A stretch of 64,000 nt of DNA from an uncultured Candidatus Saccharibacteria bacterium (GCA_964469335.1 CAYXYK010000003.1:68671-132670); one strand, 5' to 3'. Shown: positions 19,996-30,887, numbered from the stretch's first letter. Numbers and translations: made by a program. Notes: generated by a model from the sequence alone, not told the origin.

Positions 19996-21402
19996 ATGGC
20001 GTATAAAACCACTATCGGACTCGAGATACACGCGGAGCTGAAAACAGCGACCAAGATGTTCTGTCGCTGCAAAAATGACCCTGATGAAGACAAGCCAAAC
20101 CATAATATCTGCCCTGTCTGCACCGCGCAGCCCGGCTCTCTTCCGGTCATCAATCAGAAAGCCGTCGAGCATGTCCTTCGAGTGGGGAAAGCGGTCGGCT
20201 CGAATCTCGCTGACTTCACCGAGTGGGACCGCAAGAACTATTTCTATCCGGATATTCCGAAGGGTTATCAGATCAGTCAGTATAAATACCCACTGGTTCA
20301 GGGCGGATCGATCGCAGGAGTTGAGCTGACCCGTATCCACCTCGAAGAAGACACCGGCAGTTCGCGCCATGATGCAGGAGACTATTCGCTGGTCGATTAC
20401 AATCGCGCCGGAGTTCCACTCATGGAGCTTGTCACCGAACCTGTCATTCATGATGCGGAGACCGCGATGAAGTTCGCAAAGGAACTGCAGCTTCTCCTCC
20501 GCTACCTTGGTGCATCCGATGCGAACATGGAGAAAGGAGAGATGCGCGTCGAAGCGAACATCTCGATCTCGGAGACCGACACTTTCGGCACCAAGGTCGA
20601 AGTGAAGAATCTCAATTCATTCAAGTCGGTCGGCGATGCGATCGCATTCGAGATCAAACGACATGAGGAAGTCCTTTCACGCGGCGAGAAGGTGATACAG
20701 GAGACACGTGGTTGGGATGAGAATACCGGTAAGACCTTCAGTCAGCGCAAGAAGGAAAGTGCGAACGACTACCGCTATTTCCCAGATCCAGATCTCCCGA
20801 AGATGGTGACGACTGAAGTATTCGGTAAGAACTACGAGAAGCTTCCGGCACTCCCCGAACTCCCATGGGAGAAACGTGAACGATTGCAGAAAGAGTACGG
20901 ATTCGTGGAGCACGTGACTGAGATCTACGTGAGCGATTTCCTGCTCGGGAAATTCTTCGATGATGTTGTCGCCTTGCTTGGAAAGGACAAGGAGCTCATC
21001 ACACTCGCATCGAACTATATCTCCTCGGATGTCGCATCGCTCATGAAGCAAAGTGGTCATCTTGGAAAACTTACTGCAGAGCATTTTGTGGCATTAATCA
21101 GAATGACCAAAGCAGGTGATCTTTCCTCTCGAGGTGCGAAAGACACGCTCCTCCTCATCTACAAAGAAGGAGGTGAGCCGAAAGCCGTCGCAGAGAAAGC
21201 GGGGCTCATCCAGAAGAGTGATACTGGTGCTCTCAAAAAGATCGCCGAAGAAGTTATCGCAGCAAATGAAAAGGTGGTCGCAGAATACAAGGCAGGGAAG
21301 GAAGCCTCACTGATGTTCCTCGTCGGACAAGGGATGAAGCTCTCCAAGGGTTCAGCAAACCCGGGAGTGCTCACTGCGCTCTTCAAGGAATTACTCGGAT
21401 AG
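19996..21402 (+). CDS. gatB: Asp-tRNA(Asn)/Glu-tRNA(Gln) amidotransferase subunit B
   Basis: TIGLEIHAELKT, CRCKNDPDED...CPVC zinc motif, and GatB/YqeY C-terminal domain. Confidence 0.93.
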   Translation: MAYKTTIGLEIHAELKTATKMFCRCKNDPDEDKPNHNICPVCTAQPGSLPVINQKAVEHVLRVGKAVGSNLADFTEWDRKNYFYPDIPKGYQISQYKYPLVQGGSIAGVELTRIHLEEDTGSSRHDAGDYSLVDYNRAGVPLMELVTEPVIHDAETAMKFAKELQLLLRYLGASDANMEKGEMRVEANISISETDTFGTKVEVKNLNSFKSVGDAIAFEIKRHEEVLSRGEKVIQETRGWDENTGKTFSQRKKESANDYRYFPDPDLPKMVTTEVFGKNYEKLPALPELPWEKRERLQKEYGFVEHVTEIYVSDFLLGKFFDDVVALLGKDKELITLASNYISSDVASLMKQSGHLGKLTAEHFVALIRMTKAGDLSSRGAKDTLLLIYKEGGEPKAVAEKAGLIQKSDTGALKKIAEEVIAANEKVVAEYKAGKEASLMFLVGQGMKLSKGSANPGVLTALFKELLG

Positions 21403-21405
21403 CGT

Positions 21406-21966
21406 ATGCGCACCCTCGTCATCGACAATGAGACTCGACTCCTTTCCGAGCTCGAGGCCTTGCTGCCTGGACATGAAACCGTACGTCGCTGGAATGAGGA
21501 ATATGATGATCATGATGAATTTGATCTCGTCATTCTTTCTGGGGGCAGTACGTTCGGTGTGCTTGAGCAAAAATCACGACTATCGCATGAGTATGATCTC
21601 GTATTGAAACGAGAGAAACCGATTATCGGTATTTGTTTGGGGGCAGAGCTCATCGTAGACGCGTATGGTGGTACGATCACACAACTTACTGAAATAGAAC
21701 GAGGACAGTGTCAGATATATGTCCGTGAAGCGAGCCCGATATTCGGAGGTCTTGAGCAATTCACCGTGAACGAGAGACATCACTGGAAGACAGAGAAGCT
21801 CCCGACGAATTTCGAGATTCTCGCTGAGTCAGGTCATGGGGTTGAGGTATTCAAACACCGAACGAAGCCCATATTCGGTTTTCAGTTCCATCCTGAGTCC
21901 CAACTGAATCCGTCTGATGGAGGCACTATCCTTCTTGCACTCACACGACAATTCGGCCTTATATAG
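21406..21966 (+). CDS. Class I glutamine amidotransferase-like protein
   Basis: GICLGAEL nucleophile-Cys elbow and FGFQFHPE (His/Glu) motifs. Confidence 0.65.
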   Translation: MRTLVIDNETRLLSELEALLPGHETVRRWNEEYDDHDEFDLVILSGGSTFGVLEQKSRLSHEYDLVLKREKPIIGICLGAELIVDAYGGTITQLTEIERGQCQIYVREASPIFGGLEQFTVNERHHWKTEKLPTNFEILAESGHGVEVFKHRTKPIFGFQFHPESQLNPSDGGTILLALTRQFGLI

Positions 21967-21986
21967 ATTGCGATTTCGGCCTTTTA

Positions 21987-23558
21987 TTGTATGCTAATCA
22001 CATGGATACGGGTGTAAAAACACTTGCGCAGCTTTCTGAAGAAGGGAAGGAGACTAAATATGTCACACTCGAGACTGGAGCGAAGATTTCTGGCTATACC
22101 AAAGACTATCTTGAGCGTCTCTGTTTGCTGAATAAAGTCGAATACCGTCTCTGGTCAAACGGGAATTTTGTCATAGAGCTCGATTCTCTCCTCCGCGAGA
22201 CTCAGGCTATACTCCTTTCTTATGAAGGGATCACTTTTGTCGACAAAAATGAGCTTACCGACCCAGTCCCTCAGGTGGTAGGAAACATCCTCTCCTCGGT
22301 GTTAGGAGGAGCCTCGCTCGGAGCTGCTGTTCCACCACTGACTTCCTATGAGGACTCTCCCGCTTTTAAAAGCGGAATCGCACAGGCCGTGCCGACGTTT
22401 GGGAAAACGATATCTGAACATTCAACCCCCGTATCGTTCATTGGGCGGGCAGTCATTTCTGACGCACTGCACCCCGAAGAGAAGATCGAAAAGAAAAAAG
22501 AGTCTCTGAAAGGCTCGATTCCTGCCGTAGCAGCGGTGCCCGTTCCAGCTGCGACCGAACCATCGAAAAAAGAGGATGCACCAATCCATGTCCCGATCGC
22601 AAAATTCAACATGAATGCTATTCATCCGGAAGCACCGAGTTCAGCATCCGAGAGATCAGTGGCGGAGAAGGTGCATGAACGTGAGCATATTCCCGTGATT
22701 GCGGTGAATACTCACGATGATTGGGATGCACAACTTCTCGGATCACATTTACCCAAAAAAGAAGAGGCGCAACATATCCCGGTGACGAAAAGCGAAGACA
22801 TCGCTCCAAACATCCACTCGACCGAACATATCCCGATGCACCTCTCGATCGAAAAGGCACCAAGTACTCAGGCGGGTGATTTCGCTCCGCCGCAAGGCCA
22901 GAAAGTGATCGTCTTTTCAGATAGCGGAGTGACAGAACACGTTGCACCAGTAGCGGCGGAAAATCAGAACGTGCCTCCTCTCTCACCGTCGAACACCGCG
23001 GCACCCGTCAGTTTGATCGCCACTGCCCCGCATGTTTCGCTCCCTCTGCCCTCTGCGCTCCCGCTGCTTACAGCCACTCCTGAGCTGAATCTTCCTCCAG
23101 TCAAGACCGAGATTCCTGTCCGTGCAGCATCGGTGCTCCCAATGGCGACAGAAGAGCACCATCTTACTCCATATGAGACACATCCGCTGATGAAAAGCGC
23201 AGGGTTCAACATGGTTTTCGCCGCATTACTCATCGCTTCTTCTTTCGTCATGCTCGGTGGGAGAGTGCTTGAGAACATCGGGGGGAAACTCAACACAGCT
23301 GAATATGTCGCGGGTGTCGGTGCAGCAGGTGGGAACTTGCCAGAATCACAAGCTGGTGTGCCTAACGATGATCGTGCAGCCCTCCAAAACGGTGAACGAG
23401 CCATGCTTCCGTTCTCCAATGAAGTGACTGCAACCTCCGGCGAACGAGAGAACTCCATCATCATCCGCCCTGTTTTTGAAAATGGTCCCGGAAAGTCCTA
23501 TGAATACATCCTTGTTCCAGAAAGTGAGGTTGTCGGGACTACAACACCAGTTGAGTAG
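21987..23558 (+). CDS. Hypothetical bitopic membrane protein, low-complexity Pro/Ala/Ser/Glu-rich
   Basis: Repeated EHIPV-type motifs; a single TM helix (MVFAALLIASSFVMLGGRVL) near the C-terminus. Confidence 0.4.
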   Translation: MYANHMDTGVKTLAQLSEEGKETKYVTLETGAKISGYTKDYLERLCLLNKVEYRLWSNGNFVIELDSLLRETQAILLSYEGITFVDKNELTDPVPQVVGNILSSVLGGASLGAAVPPLTSYEDSPAFKSGIAQAVPTFGKTISEHSTPVSFIGRAVISDALHPEEKIEKKKESLKGSIPAVAAVPVPAATEPSKKEDAPIHVPIAKFNMNAIHPEAPSSASERSVAEKVHEREHIPVIAVNTHDDWDAQLLGSHLPKKEEAQHIPVTKSEDIAPNIHSTEHIPMHLSIEKAPSTQAGDFAPPQGQKVIVFSDSGVTEHVAPVAAENQNVPPLSPSNTAAPVSLIATAPHVSLPLPSALPLLTATPELNLPPVKTEIPVRAASVLPMATEEHHLTPYETHPLMKSAGFNMVFAALLIASSFVMLGGRVLENIGGKLNTAEYVAGVGAAGGNLPESQAGVPNDDRAALQNGERAMLPFSNEVTATSGERENSIIIRPVFENGPGKSYEYILVPESEVVGTTTPVE

Positions 23559-23654
23559 CGAGACCAGGGTCATAACAAATGCCCTGGAGGTAAGATAGGC
23601 CTGTCACAGTAAAAGGGGATAGCCGTAGTGCTGTTTTCCCAATATAATATAAGT

Positions 23655-24599
23655 ATGAGATATCATTTTGGCGCTTTCTTGGCAGCTTTGTTGTTTGTGT
23701 CTACTCCTTTTGCTCAGGCAGCAGTCATGCCGAGTGGTGCGTTCATTGTCTCTCCCGTCAAGCAAGAGCTCACGTTGAAGCCTGGGGAAGAAAAGGTGCT
23801 GAGTGTCACGCTCTCGAACGGCACTCCTTATCCGCTCTCGATCAGCGGTTCGTATGAGGATATCGCCGCAGCAGAGCAGACTGCTCCCGGTGACAATCCA
23901 GTGAAACTTCTTGGTGCGGGCGTATCAAAGGATTCACTTCGTGAGTCGATCAGTTTTCCAAAGACCTCATTCGATCTCCTCTCCGGGAAAGAGATATCCA
24001 TTCCGATCAGTATCAAACTCTCTTCATCGGTGACCCCCGGCGGGAGATATGGATCGGTGATATGGAGTTTCAAGGTGGCCAACAAGGCTGGTGAAGCCCA
24101 ACCCGCAAACGTTGCTCTTGAAAGCAGGATTGCATCGCTGTTCTTCGTGCGAGTCGAAGGAGAAACAAAAGAAGAAGGGCAGCTGGTGTCATTCGGAGTT
24201 TTCAACGACGAAAAGACGGTCTCCCAGCCCGCAAGCACTACACCACTCCGTTTCCAGTTGTCATTTGAGAACAAAGGGAACGCTCATCTTAACCCCTATG
24301 GACGTATCACCATTTCCGGAATGCTTACTGAACCGAAGGTACTAATCGTCGATCCATGGGCAGTGCTCCCTGGTGCGACTCGGATGCGTGAGGTCGATCT
24401 GCTTTCCTCGCTTCCTCCTGGCTACTACCGTGCGCACCTTGAACTGAATCGCGGCTACAAAGATATCGTTGATGAGCAAGAAGTAGTGTTCTGGGTGTTG
24501 CCGACTGCTCTTGAGTGGGTCATTGGGCTCACCATCTTGATACTCCTCGCGCTGCTTATCCGTCGTTCCTTGGCTCTGTCGAGGCATTCAATCTCTTGA
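23655..24599 (+). CDS. Secreted protein with C-terminal TM anchor (hypothetical surface protein)
   Basis: Signal peptide MRYHFGAFLAALLFVSTPFAQA; C-terminal helix EWVIGLTILILLALLIRR; TATAAT 7 nt upstream of the ATG (alternative GTG start at 23628). Confidence 0.45.
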   Translation: MRYHFGAFLAALLFVSTPFAQAAVMPSGAFIVSPVKQELTLKPGEEKVLSVTLSNGTPYPLSISGSYEDIAAAEQTAPGDNPVKLLGAGVSKDSLRESISFPKTSFDLLSGKEISIPISIKLSSSVTPGGRYGSVIWSFKVANKAGEAQPANVALESRIASLFFVRVEGETKEEGQLVSFGVFNDEKTVSQPASTTPLRFQLSFENKGNAHLNPYGRITISGMLTEPKVLIVDPWAVLPGATRMREVDLLSSLPPGYYRAHLELNRGYKDIVDEQEVVFWVLPTALEWVIGLTILILLALLIRRSLALSRHSIS

Positions 24600-24601
24600 A
24601 C

Positions 24602-25357
24602 ATGCGAACTTTTTTACCATATCTACTGACAACATTCGTGATATCGATGCTTTTCGGTACTCCATTCGCATTCGCATATGTCGCATCGAGTTCGAATTAT
24701 CGGATACAGACCGACAGTGTGAACATCGGCGGACTGTTCTCTAGTTCAACATCGTATCGCACGGAAGACACCCTCGGTGAGTCTGGTGTCGGCACATCAT
24801 CCTCTGTGACCTACTCGATAAAGGCGGGTTACCAGCAGATGCAAGGTGTGTATCTTGCGGTCGCTCCGTCCGGGGACATCACTCTCGCGCCGAACATCCC
24901 GGCAACTGGAGGAGGAGCGGCTGATGCACTTGCGACATTCATCGTGACGACCGATAACACTGCCGGATATACCATGAGCATAGTCTCAGCCCAGACACCG
25001 GCGCTCAATTCTGGTGCGAACAATTTCCCCGATTATGTTCTTGGTGGTGCGAATCCTGATTTCTCATTCACGACCCCAGCCGCGTCGTCTCGCTTCGGTT
25101 TCTCACCAGAAGGTGTCGATATTTTGCAACGCTTCAAGGATAACGGTGCAGCATGCAATATTGGCGCGCTCGACACCGCGAGCGCATGTTGGGATCCACT
25201 CTCTACTACACCTGCCTCGATAGCTGGTCGCAGTAGTGCGAACAATCCGTCGGGAACACAAACCGATATTCGCTTCCACGCAGCGTCCGGTGCGTCGAAC
25301 GTTCAGCCAGCAGGTGCGTATGTCGCAACTGCCACCGTCACCGTGCTTCCTTTGTAA
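24602..25357 (+). CDS. Secreted Ser/Thr/Gly-rich protein (hypothetical)
   Basis: Signal peptide MRTFLPYLLTTFVISMLFGTPFAFA; two Cys; no TM after the signal peptide; start codon lies 2 nt after the upstream stop. Confidence 0.45.
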   Translation: MRTFLPYLLTTFVISMLFGTPFAFAYVASSSNYRIQTDSVNIGGLFSSSTSYRTEDTLGESGVGTSSSVTYSIKAGYQQMQGVYLAVAPSGDITLAPNIPATGGGAADALATFIVTTDNTAGYTMSIVSAQTPALNSGANNFPDYVLGGANPDFSFTTPAASSRFGFSPEGVDILQRFKDNGAACNIGALDTASACWDPLSTTPASIAGRSSANNPSGTQTDIRFHAASGASNVQPAGAYVATATVTVLPL

Positions 25358-25360
25358 ACC

Positions 25361-28309
25361 ATGAAAACGAATCGTATCTGGAAACCTGTCACACTCGCGC
25401 TCATGCTGATCGCTGGGCTTTTCTTTGGCGCCTATAGTGCGCTCGCCGCATCGAGTCAGTTCACTATCGGGCTCTCTGTCATCTCTGACTCGATCCCTCC
25501 TTCGACCCCGATAGGGTTGACCGCCAATGCGGTGTCATCGGCACAGATCGATCTCTCGTGGACAGCATCGACTGACAATGTCGCCGTCGGGGGGTACGTC
25601 ATCCGTCGTGGTTTCATCGCGATCGCTACTACCTCTGGGATTACCTATTCGGACACAGGGCTCTCCGCGAGTACAGCTTATGACTATACAGTGCAGGCGT
25701 TCGACACGACATTTAATTACTCCGCACTTTCGAGCACGTCGACAGCGACAACCTCTGCACCTTCAGGTGGGGGAGGAGGCGGCGGGCCGGTCGCACCTAC
25801 CGTGACGGCATTTTCTCCGGTGAACGGAGCGGTCAATGTCTCTCCGACGACGACACTGTCGATCACGATGAGTCAGCTCGTCAATAAAGTTTCCGGGAAT
25901 ATTCTCGTGCGGCGCTACAGTGATAGTGTCGTCGTTGACACCATTGACGTGTCACAGGGGCAAGTGACCATGAACGGTACGATCGTAAACATCGCACTTA
26001 CCGGGGGACTTGCACAGAACACCCAGTATTATGTCGAGGTACCTGCGGGTTCATTCAGTACGCAATCCGGCGGTAACTTTGCGGGCTTCAGCGGGAATTC
26101 AACGTGGAGTTTCACGGTCGTAGATCAGGCCCCTCCGGTCATCTCAGGTGTCACTGCCTCATCAACCTATACAAGCAGTACGATCACGTTCTCCACTGAT
26201 AAAGCTGCAGTAGCGACCATAGACTACGGTACTTCGACACTATATGGACTCGGATCGGCAAGTGAGGTCGTATATGGCACCAACCATGTCCTCACCCTCA
26301 CTCCGCTCGCAAGCGGTACGCTTTATTATTTCCGTATCACCACTCACGACGCCGGAAACAATTACAGCGTTCCCTATACCGGTAATTTTTCCACACTGAC
26401 ACCCCCTCCACCTCCGGACACGACTCCTCCCGCGAATCCATCGAATTTCACTGGCAATCCAGGGCTGAATAACATTGCACTCACTTGGACCAATCCGAGC
26501 GATGTTGACTTCGCGGCAGTGCGTATCATGAGAAGGACATCAGGGTACCCGACTGATCCGTCCGATGGAATACTTGTCTATGACGGAGCACTTGAAGCAT
26601 TCGATAACACAGGGCTCGCGACGGGAACAAGATATTATTACACCGCATTCGCACGTGATAACGAGTTCCACTATTCTCCCGGTGCACTTTCCCCTGCGAT
26701 GACCGCTACGGGGATCATCCCACCCCCACCCCCGCCACCACCCCCACCACCACCTCCTCCACCACCACCTTCAGGGACGCCACCACCTCCTCCACCAGGA
26801 GGCACCGGAAATGGTGGTACTTCAACATCAACACCACCTCCACCTCCACCGACTCCGATAGTGATATTCCCTCCAATCACCTCCACGTCGTCGGGACCGT
26901 TCGTTGATCTCATCGGCACCGGGACTCCGAGTGCGGTCATCTCGAAACTGTCACTTTCGGATGCTCGCTTCATTCAACTTGGTGAGACGGAAACTCCGCT
27001 TTCGATTAAGAACGGAGTAGTGAGATCGAACGGCGATTTTCCGGTAAAAGTCGCCATCGACGTGTACAAGATCCCACAGTCTCTCACGACGATCGCGATA
27101 AGCATCGAGGATCCAAAAGGGAAAGGTGCCTCAGTCTCCTATCTTCTTCGTCTCAATCAAGACAAGACGGCTTTTGAGGGTGTTGTGCCGATGTTCGATG
27201 CACCGGGAAAGTACAGTTTCACGATCAGTATCCTCGACCATGAACGTCAGGCAATATCACGTTTTGCCGGAATCTTCGATGTGTTCATCCTTCCGAAAGT
27301 TCCGAGCATAGTTCCTGCTGAAGTAGCGAAAGTCGTCACGCAGGCGATGACTGCGATCGAAGAGCCAGTCTCGAATGTCGCGCCAATCGCCGCTCCGGTC
27401 GGAGTTGCCGCAGGTGCATCACAGGCAGTGTTGCTTGCGACCAATGTCGGATCAGGTTATGACCTCTATCTCTTGCTGCTGAAGTTCATCGGTCTTTTGA
27501 CTGGGCTCTTCCGTCGAAAACGCAACGAGCCGTGGGGTGTCGTCTATGACTCGGTGACGAAGCGTCCTCTCGATCCGGCATATGTCATTGCACAACTTCG
27601 TGAAAGCGCACAGTCGAAGGGGGAGGCGATCACCGATCTCGACGGACGTTTCGGATTCTTCCTTAACCCAGGTGAGTATACAATCGTTGCAAACAAGACC
27701 CACTACAAGTTCCCGTCAGATAAGCTCAAAGGACGTTCTCATGATGAGCTGTACGACAATCTCTATTTTGGAGATCCGTTCCAAGTTCGTGAGGGAGGAG
27801 TGGTGCAATACAATATTCCGCTTGACCCGGTCGAATTCGACTGGAACGAATATGCAAAGAATCAGGACAAAGTCTTCCAGATCTATTCGAAAAAGAAGAA
27901 TATCCGCTTATGGGTCTTCAACACGATCTTCTTCTTCGGTCTCATCTTCTCGTTGCTTTCCCTCATCCTGTCATATTCGCTGCTCAATCTTGTCGTGGTG
28001 CTCATTTATGGCCTCATTTTCACGTTCCAGGTATTCTGGAGAGTCGCACACCGGCCTACATATATCGTAAACAAGGCAACAGGAAAACGTTTGCCGTTCG
28101 CCATCATCAAGGTCTGGCTGCCTGGACTTAATACTGTCGTGAAGAAGACGGTCTCCGATGAGAGCGGAAGATATTATTTCCTTGTTCCTCCCGGGAAATA
28201 TTACCTTACCGTTGAAGAGAAACTTCCCGACGCAAGTTATAAAGAGATCATGCGCACCGAAGAGATGGATCTCAAGGGAGGCGTGGTGAAGGAAGATATA
28301 TTCGTGTAG
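25361..28309 (+). CDS. Large cell-surface protein: FN3-like repeats, 17-Pro linker, C-terminal TM segments and carboxypeptidase-regulatory-like (transthyretin-fold) domains
   Basis: Signal peptide; repeated 'IDLSWTAS/ALTWTNPS' FN3-like units; PPPPPPPPPPPPPPPPP; TM helices after aa 700; GRFGFFLNPGEYTIVANKTHYKF and ESGRYYFLVPPGKYYL motifs. Confidence 0.6.
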   Translation: MKTNRIWKPVTLALMLIAGLFFGAYSALAASSQFTIGLSVISDSIPPSTPIGLTANAVSSAQIDLSWTASTDNVAVGGYVIRRGFIAIATTSGITYSDTGLSASTAYDYTVQAFDTTFNYSALSSTSTATTSAPSGGGGGGGPVAPTVTAFSPVNGAVNVSPTTTLSITMSQLVNKVSGNILVRRYSDSVVVDTIDVSQGQVTMNGTIVNIALTGGLAQNTQYYVEVPAGSFSTQSGGNFAGFSGNSTWSFTVVDQAPPVISGVTASSTYTSSTITFSTDKAAVATIDYGTSTLYGLGSASEVVYGTNHVLTLTPLASGTLYYFRITTHDAGNNYSVPYTGNFSTLTPPPPPDTTPPANPSNFTGNPGLNNIALTWTNPSDVDFAAVRIMRRTSGYPTDPSDGILVYDGALEAFDNTGLATGTRYYYTAFARDNEFHYSPGALSPAMTATGIIPPPPPPPPPPPPPPPPPSGTPPPPPPGGTGNGGTSTSTPPPPPPTPIVIFPPITSTSSGPFVDLIGTGTPSAVISKLSLSDARFIQLGETETPLSIKNGVVRSNGDFPVKVAIDVYKIPQSLTTIAISIEDPKGKGASVSYLLRLNQDKTAFEGVVPMFDAPGKYSFTISILDHERQAISRFAGIFDVFILPKVPSIVPAEVAKVVTQAMTAIEEPVSNVAPIAAPVGVAAGASQAVLLATNVGSGYDLYLLLLKFIGLLTGLFRRKRNEPWGVVYDSVTKRPLDPAYVIAQLRESAQSKGEAITDLDGRFGFFLNPGEYTIVANKTHYKFPSDKLKGRSHDELYDNLYFGDPFQVREGGVVQYNIPLDPVEFDWNEYAKNQDKVFQIYSKKKNIRLWVFNTIFFFGLIFSLLSLILSYSLLNLVVVLIYGLIFTFQVFWRVAHRPTYIVNKATGKRLPFAIIKVWLPGLNTVVKKTVSDESGRYYFLVPPGKYYLTVEEKLPDASYKEIMRTEEMDLKGGVVKEDIFV

Positions 28310-28312
28310 TTC

Positions 28313-29701
28313 ATGAGGCGTCATGCGATCATCGTGGTCGACCTTGGGTTTGGCGATGCAGGGAAAGGCTCGGTCGTCGACGCACTCACAGCGCGGTACA
28401 AAGCGCACACGGTTGTACGCTACAACGGCGGCGCACAAGCGGCACATACTGTAGTTACCCCGACCGGGGCAGTCCATACTTTTTCGCAGTGGGGAAGCGG
28501 GACTTTCTCTCCCGGAGTCCGTACTTATCTTTCGGAGTATATGTTGGTCGATCCGTTCGCACTCCTCAATGAGGAATTACATCTTCAAAGCGTGGGTGTG
28601 TCCGACGGTTTCGCTCGTATGTACATCGATGAGCGTGCCCCCATTGTCACTCCGTTCGCCCGCTCACTCAATAGACTCCGCGAGTACGCAAGAGGTGAAG
28701 CGCGACACGGTAGCTGTGGTATGGGGATTGGAGAAACCATGGAAGAAAAATGCGAACTAGGTGAGCTCGTGCTGTACGCGGGAGATATGCGGAACGAAGA
28801 ACAGCTTCGTGAGAAACTTGATATGCAGCGGATCCGTATGCAAAAAGTCGCTACACAGTTGACCGAAGGACTTTCGCTCGAAGGTGAGATCCTCGATGAA
28901 TGGAAACTCCTAGCTGCTGAAGATGGTCAGGCGATGACGAATATCATTGCTGTGTGCAGAAGGGTCGCAGAACTGGTCACGATCGTTCCTCGTGCTCAGG
29001 TCCATGAGTTTTTCCGTCCAGAAGGTGTGGTCATCTTCGAGGGTGCACAAGGAGTGCTGATTGATCAGGATTTTGGTTTCACACCGTACACGACATGGAG
29101 TGATACGACATCGAAAAATGCAAAAAACATTCTCGGGGCATGTGGTTTCGAGGGAGAAGTGAAAGTGATCGGAGTGCTGCGTGGATATGCGGTGAGGCAC
29201 GGTCCTGGGCCATTCGTTTCGGAAGATCATGGACTCACTCGGAATCTCCCTGACACCCATAATGTGTGGAATGCTTGGCAGAAAGATTTTCGTGTCGGCG
29301 TCTTTGATGCGGTAAGCAGTAGATATGCGCTTGCAGTGACTGGTGGTATTGATGTCCTTGCGATCAATTGTCTTGATAGACTCTCAGAGATGACAGAGCT
29401 AGTGATTGTGACGCATTACCGAGCGGATGGGTCTATGAACACAGAAGAATTTCTTGAGGGGAGAGATGGAAAGGGATTTCTTCGAGATATCGTGCTGAGT
29501 CGCCCCGCGGATCAGAGTCACCAAGAACAGCTCACTTCGTTCCTCAGGCAAGTGGTGCCAGTCAAAACAACATTTGCAACAAGCATGATTGGGGAATTCG
29601 TTTCGGCAATTGAGCAGGAACTTGGGGTTTCAGTCGCACTTCTCGGGTACGGGGCATCGAGGGACAAGAAAGAATGGAAACATGAAATTATAGCCTTATA
29701 A
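28313..29701 (+). CDS. Adenylosuccinate synthetase family protein (divergent PurA-like)
   Basis: GDAGKGSVVD (P-loop, compare GDEGKGK), VVRYNGGAQAAHTVV (compare VVRYQGGHNAGHT), GSCGMGIGET (compare TTGRGIGPAY). Confidence 0.65.
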   Translation: MRRHAIIVVDLGFGDAGKGSVVDALTARYKAHTVVRYNGGAQAAHTVVTPTGAVHTFSQWGSGTFSPGVRTYLSEYMLVDPFALLNEELHLQSVGVSDGFARMYIDERAPIVTPFARSLNRLREYARGEARHGSCGMGIGETMEEKCELGELVLYAGDMRNEEQLREKLDMQRIRMQKVATQLTEGLSLEGEILDEWKLLAAEDGQAMTNIIAVCRRVAELVTIVPRAQVHEFFRPEGVVIFEGAQGVLIDQDFGFTPYTTWSDTTSKNAKNILGACGFEGEVKVIGVLRGYAVRHGPGPFVSEDHGLTRNLPDTHNVWNAWQKDFRVGVFDAVSSRYALAVTGGIDVLAINCLDRLSEMTELVIVTHYRADGSMNTEEFLEGRDGKGFLRDIVLSRPADQSHQEQLTSFLRQVVPVKTTFATSMIGEFVSAIEQELGVSVALLGYGASRDKKEWKHEIIAL

Positions 29702-29765
29702 CAGGCTCATTTTGGATATGGTATGATATTTCCATACAATTATCGTACATAATCCACTGATCACC

Positions 29766-30887
29766 ATGGGTAATAATCAATATGCAGCACCTGCTGCAAG
29801 TGTCGCTGCGGCTCCGGCATCCGCTCCTCTTGTGTCGACCGAAGGGAATAAGGTTCGCGTTGCGATAAACGGCTTCGGTCGTATCGGACGGGCGTTCTAC
29901 AAGCTTGCACGTACTCGTCCTGAGTTTGAGATCGTGGCAGTGAATGATCTCGGCGATCTTGAGAACATGGCATATCTTCTCAAATATGATACTGCGTATG
30001 GTAAGGCAGATTTCGATATCACGATCGTTCCAGTTGGAGGGGCGGAGGAACCAGGATTCGTCGATAATGGGCGCAAGGTTGTCCTAGTTCAAGAAAAGGA
30101 TGCCACCAAGCTTCCGTGGGGAAAGTACAACATAGACATTGTCGTCGAGTCGACCGGACTCTTCACTGCATTCGACAAAGCGAAGGTGCATCTCGATGCG
30201 GGTGCAAAACGTGTCGTCATCACCGCTCCAGTGAAAGGCGCAGAGGTTCCCGGCATTACCACTGCGACAGTGCTGATGGGAATCAATGATGACAAGCTCG
30301 CAACGTGCGTCATGTCATCGAATGCATCATGCACGACGAACGCTGCATCCCCATTGATCCACATTCTCCATGAGAAGATCGGTATCGAGAAAGCGCTCCT
30401 AAATACCACCCATGCGATGACTGGTACCCAGCGTGTCGTCGACAGTCCTGGAGGCAAGGATGCTCGCGGTGGTCGTGCTGCATCAGAGAACATGATCCCC
30501 GCATCGACCGGTGCGGCGATAGCGGTCACCGAAGCAGTTCCCGATCTCAGGGGTCTCTTCGATGGGATTTCCATTCGTGTTCCGGTCATTGCTGGAAGCA
30601 TCGCGGACATTACCTTCATTGCGAAGCGCGAGACCAGTACTGAGGAGGTCAATCAGATTCTTCGTGATGCCGCAAAGGACCCGCGCTGGGAGGGTGTCTT
30701 CACTGTCACCGAGGAAGATCTCGTCTCATCGGACATTGTCGGCAATCTCCATGGTGCGATCGCAGATCTTCAAATGACCCGAGTTGTCGGTGGCAATCTC
30801 GTGAAAGTGATGAGCTGGTATGATAATGAGATGGGTTACACCAATACACTGGTCAAGCATGTGGTCGAGGTTTCGAAACACGTCTAA
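29766..30887 (+). CDS. gap: Glyceraldehyde-3-phosphate dehydrogenase, type I
   Basis: INGFGRIGR Rossmann motif and active-site SNASCTTN; about 28-aa Ala-rich N-terminal extension. Confidence 0.93.
   Translation: MGNNQYAAPAASVAAAPASAPLVSTEGNKVRVAINGFGRIGRAFYKLARTRPEFEIVAVNDLGDLENMAYLLKYDTAYGKADFDITIVPVGGAEEPGFVDNGRKVVLVQEKDATKLPWGKYNIDIVVESTGLFTAFDKAKVHLDAGAKRVVITAPVKGAEVPGITTATVLMGINDDKLATCVMSSNASCTTNAASPLIHILHEKIGIEKALLNTTHAMTGTQRVVDSPGGKDARGGRAASENMIPASTGAAIAVTEAVPDLRGLFDGISIRVPVIAGSIADITFIAKRETSTEEVNQILRDAAKDPRWEGVFTVTEEDLVSSDIVGNLHGAIADLQMTRVVGGNLVKVMSWYDNEMGYTNTLVKHVVEVSKHV

Follow-up and report, generated by a model that had tools for sequence, protein, structure and literature searches.

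The stretch of DNA analysed here (64,000 nucleotides, GCA_964469335.1, CAYXYK010000003.1:68671-132670; hereafter the window) carries three consecutive open reading frames (ORFs), g1 (314 amino acids), g2 (251 amino acids) and g3 (982 amino acids), which all lie on the + strand and are spaced by 2-3 bases. Together they look like an operon of a bacterium of the Patescibacteria (candidate phyla radiation, CPR) encoding a membrane-anchored stalk, a small cap with the fold of a pilus subunit and a membrane-tethered helper. The cluster is most likely an usher-less appendage related to the CPR Pam pilus and to the WxL/WxLIP complexes of Firmicutes, and it is judged probable, with real room for doubt, that it is a surface system of the Pam/WxL type working by strand complementation, in which g2 is docked on g3. 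Its role is likely to be contact with a surface or with a host cell. The original prediction had described a secreted or surface-located three-gene cluster, which the ORFs, signal-like N-termini and transmembrane (TM) anchors bear out; it missed the PamT-like pilin fold of g2, the donor-type strand of g3 and a fourth gene, g0, lying upstream. The conserved unit comprises four genes in the order g0-g1-g2-g3. All coordinates below refer to the window and, unless stated otherwise, to its + strand.

Two known systems are relevant for comparison. The Pam pilus of Candidatus Mycosynbacter amalyticus (Saccharimonadia) is an usher-less filament formed by donor-strand exchange, in which PamT is the proposed single-domain tip subunit, PamC/D are membrane-anchored, chaperone-like proteins and the PamR anchor consists of an N-terminal strand, FnIII domains and a C-terminal TM helix (Troman et al., 10.64898/2026.03.03.709456). 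The WxLIP proteins have a signal peptide, two immunoglobulin-like (Ig-like) domains and a C-terminal TM helix, and AlphaFold2 predicts that an inserted WxLIP strand completes the incomplete beta-sandwich of the partner WxL proteins (Hassan et al. 2023, PMC10599100). The Pam preprint names neither WxL/DUF916 nor the Paceibacteria/Parcubacteria (10.64898/2026.03.03.709456), and the words chaperone, pilus and donor are not used in the WxLIP paper (PMC10599100).

The proposed cap subunit g2

The protein g2 (24602-25357) is a distant homologue of PamT whose modelled fold is of the pilin type, and is proposed to be a secreted, PamT-like cap subunit. It has a signal-like N-terminus, and alanine, serine, threonine and glycine make up 48% of its mature part. 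Residues 9-131 match the NCBIfam model NF058579 (CPR_pilus_PamT) with E=2.4e-12 and 46.8 bits. The model is also matched by g2-like domains that lie inside other proteins and have no signal peptide (E=1e-8 to 4e-8, one of them spanning positions 26-238 of 241); hence, the similarity of g2 to PamT is not an artefact of the signal peptide. In an AlphaFold2 model based on 55 sequences, residues 81-251 were folded with a predicted local distance difference test (pLDDT) score above 90, and structural comparison showed that this fold is closest to an archaic chaperone-usher pilin. No Pfam family was found for g2 in a single-sequence scan, and searches of the PDB sequences with g2 and with its profile gave nothing meaningful.

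The pilin-type Ig-like domain (residues 85-251, 24854-25354) contains an invariant pair of cysteines, Cys185 and Cys196. It is preceded by a head (residues 26-84, 24677-24853), which has no fold in the monomer model (pLDDT 30-38). The head, rich in tyrosine, serine, asparagine and glycine, is among the most conserved stretches of the sequence; it holds three S-S/T-x-x-Y-R/S-I/T motifs and the invariant residues S30, Y33, D38, G44, S49, T57, E60, G64, S68, G76, Y77 and M80.

Larger proteins in which the N-terminal part consists of Laminin_G_3, DUF2341 or several FN3 domains were also found to end in the g2 domain; they appear to be tip adhesins of the same system that bear lectin domains. Their layout is shared by FimH and PapG, which are two-domain tip adhesins. 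The proteins P0368, P0392, P0400, P0426 and P0478 all terminate in the g2 head and pilin domain. Laminin_G_3 is a concanavalin-like lectin, and one such N-terminal part weakly matches the NCBIfam entry 'TafC family fimbrial protein'.

The modelled pilin-type fold of g2 resembles that of the subunits of chaperone-usher pili (CsuA/B, CupE/SCPU, Fim, Pap and CFA/I). The present cluster differs from these in belonging to a monoderm cell without an outer-membrane usher, in having an integral membrane protein as its base and in that the putative chaperone, g1, is tethered to the membrane and has no match to the PapD family; neither an usher nor a PapD-family protein was matched by Pfam or NCBIfam in g0-g3.

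The membrane-tethered protein g1

The gene g1 (23655-24599) encodes a protein with a signal-like segment at residues 7-25 (signal peptide ~1-22), two beta-rich domains and a C-terminal TM helix at residues 284-302 (24504-24560). The WxLIP_PGBD family, formerly DUF916 (PF06030), was matched by 31 of the 57 members of the g1 family, with a best E of 6e-7. On comparing the family profile with the PDB, it was found to match the solved WxLIP of Enterococcus faecium, EfmWxLIP1 (9i25_C and 9i1y_A), over profile positions 48-175 with E=2e-7; the search with g1 alone returned noise only. On these sequence matches, the g1 family belongs to the WxLIP (DUF916) proteins found in Firmicute WxL clusters, and g1 is taken as a membrane-tethered, WxLIP-like protein and proposed chaperone. 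The hunch in the original prediction that the arrangement resembles the cell-surface-complex operons of Gram-positive bacteria thus received genuine support. One g1 relative also gave a negligible match to a fimbrial chaperone (E=0.057). PamT aside, the NCBIfam CPR_pilus/Pam models were likewise unmatched by the g1 family and by the proteins of a more distant locus, L040, which is described below.

A protein that fuses the two neighbours was observed among the relatives. In P0365, a g1-like N-terminal part (35% identity to g1 over 284 residues) is followed by a g2-like C-terminal part which retains the signal-peptide region of g2; this product may be either a genuine fusion or a read-through of a stop codon by the gene caller. 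Other profile matches of ~520-600 amino acids look similar from the signal-peptide region onward; P0365 is the one that was checked.

The homology of g1 to WxLIP/DUF916 raises the question of whether the cluster is a cell-wall platform of the Csc/WxL type known from Lactobacillales, in which g1 would stabilise g2 on the cell's own peptidoglycan and g3 would be an independent FN3 adhesin of the same operon. The WxL/Csc clusters of Lactobacillales and Bacillales likewise contain a TM-anchored WxLIP with the layout of g1 alongside a large surface protein of several domains and a small subunit that is secreted, and the strand complementation predicted for WxLIP and WxL proteins (PMC10599100) would suit this reading. 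However, those clusters are defined by WxL domains in at least two proteins, and the WxL family had no Pfam match in g2 or g3 at E up to 1 and no W-x-L motif occurs in either, in agreement with what the original prediction had noted. The large protein is held by a C-terminal WxL domain in those clusters and by its own TM module in g3, and the phylum differs. The second WxLIP domain, DUF3324, was undetected, the fold of g2 is nearest to chaperone-usher pilins, and the complementary split and fused arrangements described below connect g2 with the N-terminus of g3-type anchors. A WxL platform is hence considered unlikely.

The strand and stalk of g3

The third protein, g3 (25361-28309), is a membrane-anchored stalk protein. 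It has a signal-like N-terminus followed by ASSQFTIGLSVISD, in which hydrophobic residues alternate (F-x-I-x-L-x-V). The proposed donor strand, ASSQFTIGLSVISDSI, forms the mature N-terminus (residues 30-45, 25448-25495) and is linked by a proline-rich hinge, PPSTP, to the first FN3 domain. It lies outside the FN3 fold, the Pfam fn3 match beginning at residue 49. The strand is conserved in the orthologues of g3 with the consensus NQFTxGLxVVSD, and it was the sole match to its motif pattern among the ORFs of the window. In its conserved N-terminal strand, FN3 domains and membrane anchor, the sequence of g3 shows the logic of PamR, here enlarged.

The stalk domains, predicted to be extracellular, extend over 25496-26710 and comprise an FN3 domain (~46-135), a Big_5 domain (145-252) and two FN3-like units (256-345 and 355-450). 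Pfam matched fn3 at residues 49-117 (27.9 bits, cut-off 25), Big_5 at residues 145-252 (47.2 bits) and the FN3-like family Pur_ac_phosph_N at residues 268-339 (29.8 bits, cut-off 30), and the fourth unit was assigned from the alignment and the sequence pattern only. These are followed by a spacer of 53 residues (453-505, 26717-26875), which is 60% proline and includes exactly 17 prolines in a row (residues 454-470, 26720-26770). The spacer differs in length and composition among the orthologues, being acidic in distant ones, and is the least conserved region of mature g3 (0.46), with only the signal peptide lower (0.33). A membrane-proximal Ig-like domain (residues 535-642, 26963-27286), modelled by AlphaFold2 as a beta-sandwich with pLDDT ~85, was found in 61 of the 83 related loci. 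The architecture that had been read from the sequence of this giant protein, with its 17-proline run, FN3-like units, TM helices and CarboxypepD_reg-like domains, was thus recovered.

Some homologues carry labels such as 'alpha amylase catalytic region' and 'chitodextrinase', and the NCBIfam exoglucanase model CbhB is partially matched, which would fit an ordinary carbohydrate-active or enzyme-associated surface protein. These matches are confined to the FN3 repeats (CbhB positions 780-963 of 997, 84 bits against a cut-off of 1950), and no catalytic domain was found in g0-g3 by Pfam or NCBIfam, so that an enzyme-associated role is barely credible.

Split and fused arrangements of the head

The relation between the g2 head and the stalk was analysed in 80 metagenome loci. 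Because the loci were fetched through the g3 anchor only, the presence of g1 or g2 played no part in their selection. In 49 of them, the anchor ORF is complete and preceded by 2.3 kb or more of sequence. In 10 of the 49, the g2 head is fused right after the signal peptide (E=5e-21 to 7e-13 with a hidden Markov model (HMM) of the head only), as in the locus L137 with AYVAASPNYRLEKDSLNVGG...TLGE...GYRYM, and none of these ten is preceded by a gene for g1 or for a g2 pilin domain. The other 39 anchors mostly begin with an alternating strand, for example AATDAVQVNLSVT; g2 lies just upstream of 32 of them, accompanied by g1 in 31 of the 32 cases. The difference between the two groups (32/39 vs 0/10) is significant at p=2.4e-6 by Fisher's test. 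From these sequences, the head either is covalently joined to the stalk's top or comes with g2, in which case g1 and a g3 bearing the strand are also present. Such a pattern is to be expected if the pilin domain of g2, the strand of g3 and the chaperone g1 exist to dock the head onto the stalk.

The same data bear on the idea that the cluster makes a polymeric thin pilus, in which g2 would polymerise with itself through a donated N-terminal region, g1 would act as the chaperone and g3 would just anchor or terminate the fibre. Its merits are the pilin fold of g2, the conserved N-terminal region that is unfolded in the monomer model and the precedent of the Pam pili, which are polymerised by donated linker strands (10.64898/2026.03.03.709456). 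However, the head stands alone at the N-terminus of monomeric, anchored stalks without a pilin domain and is therefore a poor fit to a donor strand. Moreover, clusters that have a shaft-type paralogue use another N-terminal strand, similar to that of g3, and the paralogue is absent from the window. A pilus of polymerised g2 is thus decidedly unlikely.

Another proposal would make g2 a matrix fibre subunit, similar to TasA/TLP or to cannulae, which assembles outside the cell without a chaperone next to unrelated surface proteins. The search for Pfam Peptidase_M73/TasA gave no match, g2 is closest in fold to an archaic chaperone-usher pilin, and the tight synteny of g1, g2 and g3 together with the fusion pattern favours a chaperoned and anchored assembly. 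Such a matrix fibre is highly improbable.

The proposed shaft pilin pil2

A cluster with a shaft-type paralogue was found in a more distant Paceibacterium, at the locus L040. There, one block contains a g0-like protein with a helix-turn-helix (HTH) domain and a TM helix, a g2-like pilin of 234 amino acids (pil2), g1, g2 and a g3-like protein of 522 amino acids. The mature N-terminus of this pil2 is EDQFTVTQSITSEI, with the strand DQFTVTQSIT, and a similar strand opens the 522-amino-acid protein, which continues with FN3 domains and a single C-terminal TM helix and thus has the architecture of PamR. This type of strand is also found at the start of pil2 and of short g3-like anchors in other Paceibacteria. 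The PamT model is matched by the g2 type (26.6 bits for the g2-like protein of L040) and not by pil2. An order of tip (g2), shaft (pil2) and anchor (g3) fits these sequences.

Of the 83 loci, 38 have a pil2 gene upstream of g1; the window and its clade have none. Neither a tblastn search nor a profile search of all six-frame ORFs revealed another gene in the window that is pilin-like, chaperone-like or strand-bearing. The comparison suggests that the window's clade lost the shaft pilin while g3 doubled in length. Since the shaft pilin is missing and g3 is roughly double the length, a covalent stalk seems to stand in for the pilus shaft.

Examples of pil2 (~230 amino acids) with a strand of the EDQFTVTQSIT type are located at L040:5310-6014, L030:5297-5989 and L062:5237-5968. 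An 'EP' pair, located some 7 residues ahead of where cleavage is predicted (...LEPTLSRA|V), is conserved in their signal peptides and might point to dedicated processing.

The membrane anchor module of g3

The anchor module (27455-28306) consists of TM1 (residues 699-717), beta-sandwich domain 1 (718-843), the TM2-TM3 hairpin (844-896) and domain 2 (897-982), which is transthyretin/CarboxypepD_reg-like. Hydropathy located hydrophobic helices at residues 699-717, ~844-870 and 874-896, and AlphaFold2 models them as helical; the TM helices noted earlier are real. The block had been described as unusual; the module recurs in the Patescibacteria, with more than 407 metagenome relatives, and is modular in that it also occurs beneath unrelated extracellular heads.

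The seven-strand, transthyretin-like beta-sandwich that characterises CarboxypepD_reg/transthyretin-like domains is found in g3. In the window, domain 1 (~720-843) gave sub-threshold matches to the transthyretin clan only (NOMO_5th and DUF1416), and its AlphaFold2 confidence is low; PF13715/PF13620 are carried by the g3 orthologues in the same domain. Among the domains that the original prediction had named for Pfam scans, fn3 was detected on g3 itself and DUF916 at the level of the g1 family. The C-terminal anchor rather than the stalk is the most conserved part of g3, with a column identity of 0.83 in TM1 and 0.85 in domain 1, and it contains the invariant motifs PWGxVYD, ITDxDGRxGF, KTHYxFPS and PxDPxxFDWNE. 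Compared with other transthyretin-like/CarboxypepD_reg domains, the two in g3 are distinctive in that TM helices alternate with them and in their predicted location on the cytoplasmic side, and domain 1 has a long, nearly invariant insertion (KTHYKFPS ... PLDPxEFDWNE).

Lysine and arginine number 4.2 per 15 residues after TM1, 4.0 before TM2 and 3.6 after TM3, as against none in the three-residue loop between TM2 and TM3 and 0.9 per 15 in the 46 residues before TM1. By the positive-inside rule, this charge bias would place the stalk outside and both beta-sandwich domains in the cytoplasm. A topology of four TM helices with both domains outside was also considered and is disfavoured; in it, all the lysine- and arginine-rich flanks would be outside and the charge-free loops inside.

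Two other combinations of the anchor were seen. At L137:8194-10293 it lies below a stalk of short cysteine-containing repeats, GCTDPxAxNYNxxAxxDDGSCxY, and at L163:8056-10002 below an unrelated head composed of GYxWSxxxGWINxxP repeats and a spacer rich in serine, glycine and proline.

Proposed mechanism and comparison with known systems

According to the proposed mechanism, g1, g2 and g3 would be exported by Sec, as their signal peptides suggest. By analogy with the WxLIP-WxL and PamC/D-pilin predictions, g1, held at the membrane by its C-terminal helix, would cap the pilin-type domain of g2 as a chaperone. From g1, g2 would then pass to g3, whose N-terminal strand, SSQFTIGLSVIS, would complete the fold of g2. 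In the membrane-anchored stalk formed by g3, the order from this strand inwards would be FN3, Big_5, FN3, FN3, the proline-rich spacer and the Ig-like domain, with an estimated length of a few tens of nanometres (assuming ~4 nm per domain and a polyproline-II spacer). The anchor would span the membrane three times and, judging from the charge bias, keep its two conserved beta-sandwich domains inside. The product would be a single-chain stalk on three TM helices without a shaft pilin, carrying g2 and its 55-residue head rich in tyrosine, serine, asparagine and glycine at the distal end.

The cluster resembles the Pam system in several respects. Both are specific to the CPR, and no usher is present in either; a tethered, chaperone-like protein with a C-terminal TM helix (PamC/D and g1, likened by architecture) and a small single-domain tip subunit (PamT and g2, with the HMM match given above) occur in both; and signal peptides on all parts and paired cysteines in the subunits are common to the two. 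PamR and g3 are alike in architecture, and the 522-amino-acid g3-like protein of L040 is closer still. However, the two-domain shaft pilins PamA, PamB and PamE have no counterpart in the window, which has one g2-like domain only, and g3 differs from PamR in its length (~980 amino acids), its Big_5 domain, the 17-proline spacer and the three TM helices with two transthyretin-like domains. The genomic context is also different, with ATP synthase genes there and gatB and gap here, where an HTH-TM protein is part of the cluster as well.

Several observations weigh against the docking of g2 on g3 by a Pam/WxL-type mechanism, or against parts of it. The 46.8 bits of g2 are far under the PamT equivalog cut-off of 240 bits, and the window's g2 covers just the N-terminal half of the model. 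The NCBIfam CPR_pilus/Pam models gave no match to g1 or g3 at E up to 10, in a library in which the PamT model was the only one seen and the others may not exist. The window's g1 alone has no Pfam match above threshold, so that its link to WxLIP rests on the family as a whole, and DUF3324 is absent from the Pfam matches of all g1 family members, which include only generic Ig-like families in its stead. Of the 39 anchors that lack the fused head, 7 have no g2 next to them. Because the head of the larger g2-like proteins sits between the lectin and pilin domains, it may be a neck and not an adhesive end. The donation of the g3 strand to g2 and the action of g1 as a chaperone are, moreover, both inferred. 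For the placement of both beta-sandwich domains in the cytoplasm, the charge bias is the sole basis, and transthyretin/CarboxypepD_reg-like domains are usually extracytoplasmic.

The cluster would work like the Pam system and is not a strict member of it, because the PamT equivalog test fails and PamA/B/E-type pilins are missing. A bolder version of the strand-complementation reading can be formulated, in which the cluster would be a shaft-less 'one-molecule pilus', continuous from the tip to the cytoplasm, with g2 as the non-covalently docked cap, an anchor presenting two nearly invariant beta-sandwich domains to the cytoplasm, contact at the tip signalled inward and g0 as the transcriptional read-out; the WxL clusters, the Pam pili and the present cluster would then all derive from a single ancient system of monoderms that combines a chaperone with strand complementation and lacks an usher. 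This version is speculative and, taken as a whole, rather unlikely.

Distribution and significance

The relatives of the cluster belong to the Parcubacteria/Paceibacteria and include Candidatus Lloydbacteria, Kaiser-, Zambryski-, Nomura-, Taylor- and Vogelbacteria and Minisyncoccia. By two peptide patterns only, the g2 family was counted in at least 218 species representatives of the Paceibacteria/Parcubacteria, and the nearest g2 relative there is 76% identical. The family has 550 matches at the 90% clustering level, and its profile is matched by 1686 clusters at 50% identity with E up to 1e-3. In 82 of the 83 loci, g2 is directly preceded by a g1 homologue, and in 80 it is directly followed by an FN3-domain gene, so the gene order proposed for a synteny check is well conserved. 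The cluster is not a chance arrangement: for each of the three proteins, conserved relatives number in the hundreds, and their order is conserved too.

Much of bacterial diversity falls within the Patescibacteria/CPR, and many of them live attached to other cells. To our knowledge, no contact organs of the CPR are known apart from type IV pili and the Pam pilus (2026). The present cluster is widespread in the Paceibacteria, a class that goes unmentioned in the Pam preprint, and in the window, a WxLIP/DUF916 homologue directly adjoins a PamT homologue, which offers a possible evolutionary bridge between the WxL clusters and the Pam pili. This adjacency suggests a shared principle of assembly with a tethered chaperone, strand complementation and no usher. 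The split variant (g1, g2 and a strand-bearing g3) and the fused variant form a natural pair for experimental testing, and the anchor, in which three TM helices are combined with two beta-sandwich domains, is a modular building block of CPR surface proteins for which no description is known. The two points of wider interest are the possible bridge and the shaft-less variant with its conserved transmembrane anchor.

The neighbouring gene g0 and the flanks of the cluster

The fourth member of the unit, g0 (21987-23558, 523 amino acids), was identified as an ORF with a predicted TM helix and has a homologue upstream of g1 in related loci; this position immediately before the cluster is kept in close and in distant Paceibacteria alike. 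Its conserved N-terminal domain opens with KYVTLETGAKISGYTKDYLERLC and is followed by a long linker of low complexity. The protein is bitopic, with its TM helix at residues 405-428 and a C-terminal part of ~95 amino acids, ending in YEYILVP, that is predicted to be outside. The Pfam family HTH_17 was matched by the N-terminal domain in 9 of 22 members of the g0 family (best E=2e-9); the window's g0 itself had no HTH_17 match in Pfam, and single-sequence Pfam and NCBIfam scans of it gave nothing useful. The HTH_17-like domain is predicted to be cytoplasmic, and on these sequence features, g0 may be a membrane-tethered transcription factor.

A scan of 21300-29900 for promoters and terminators was uninformative, with promoters at the mean of the shuffled control and terminators ~1.8 standard deviations above it. 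An ORF of 100 amino acids on the - strand (26671-26973), rich in poly-glycine, is the reverse complement of the proline spacer of g3 and almost certainly no gene.

In the window's own clade, the block is flanked by gatB and the GAPDH gene. On comparison with the relatives L001-L003, the window was found to have two additional genes, at 21406-21966 (+) and 28313-29701 (+). The former, an ORF of 186 amino acids, sits between gatB and g0. The latter, an ORF of 462 amino acids which we take from its sequence to be adenylosuccinate-synthetase-like, starts 3 bases past the stop codon of g3 and lies between g3 and the GAPDH gene. The flanks of the cluster are therefore less fixed than its core.

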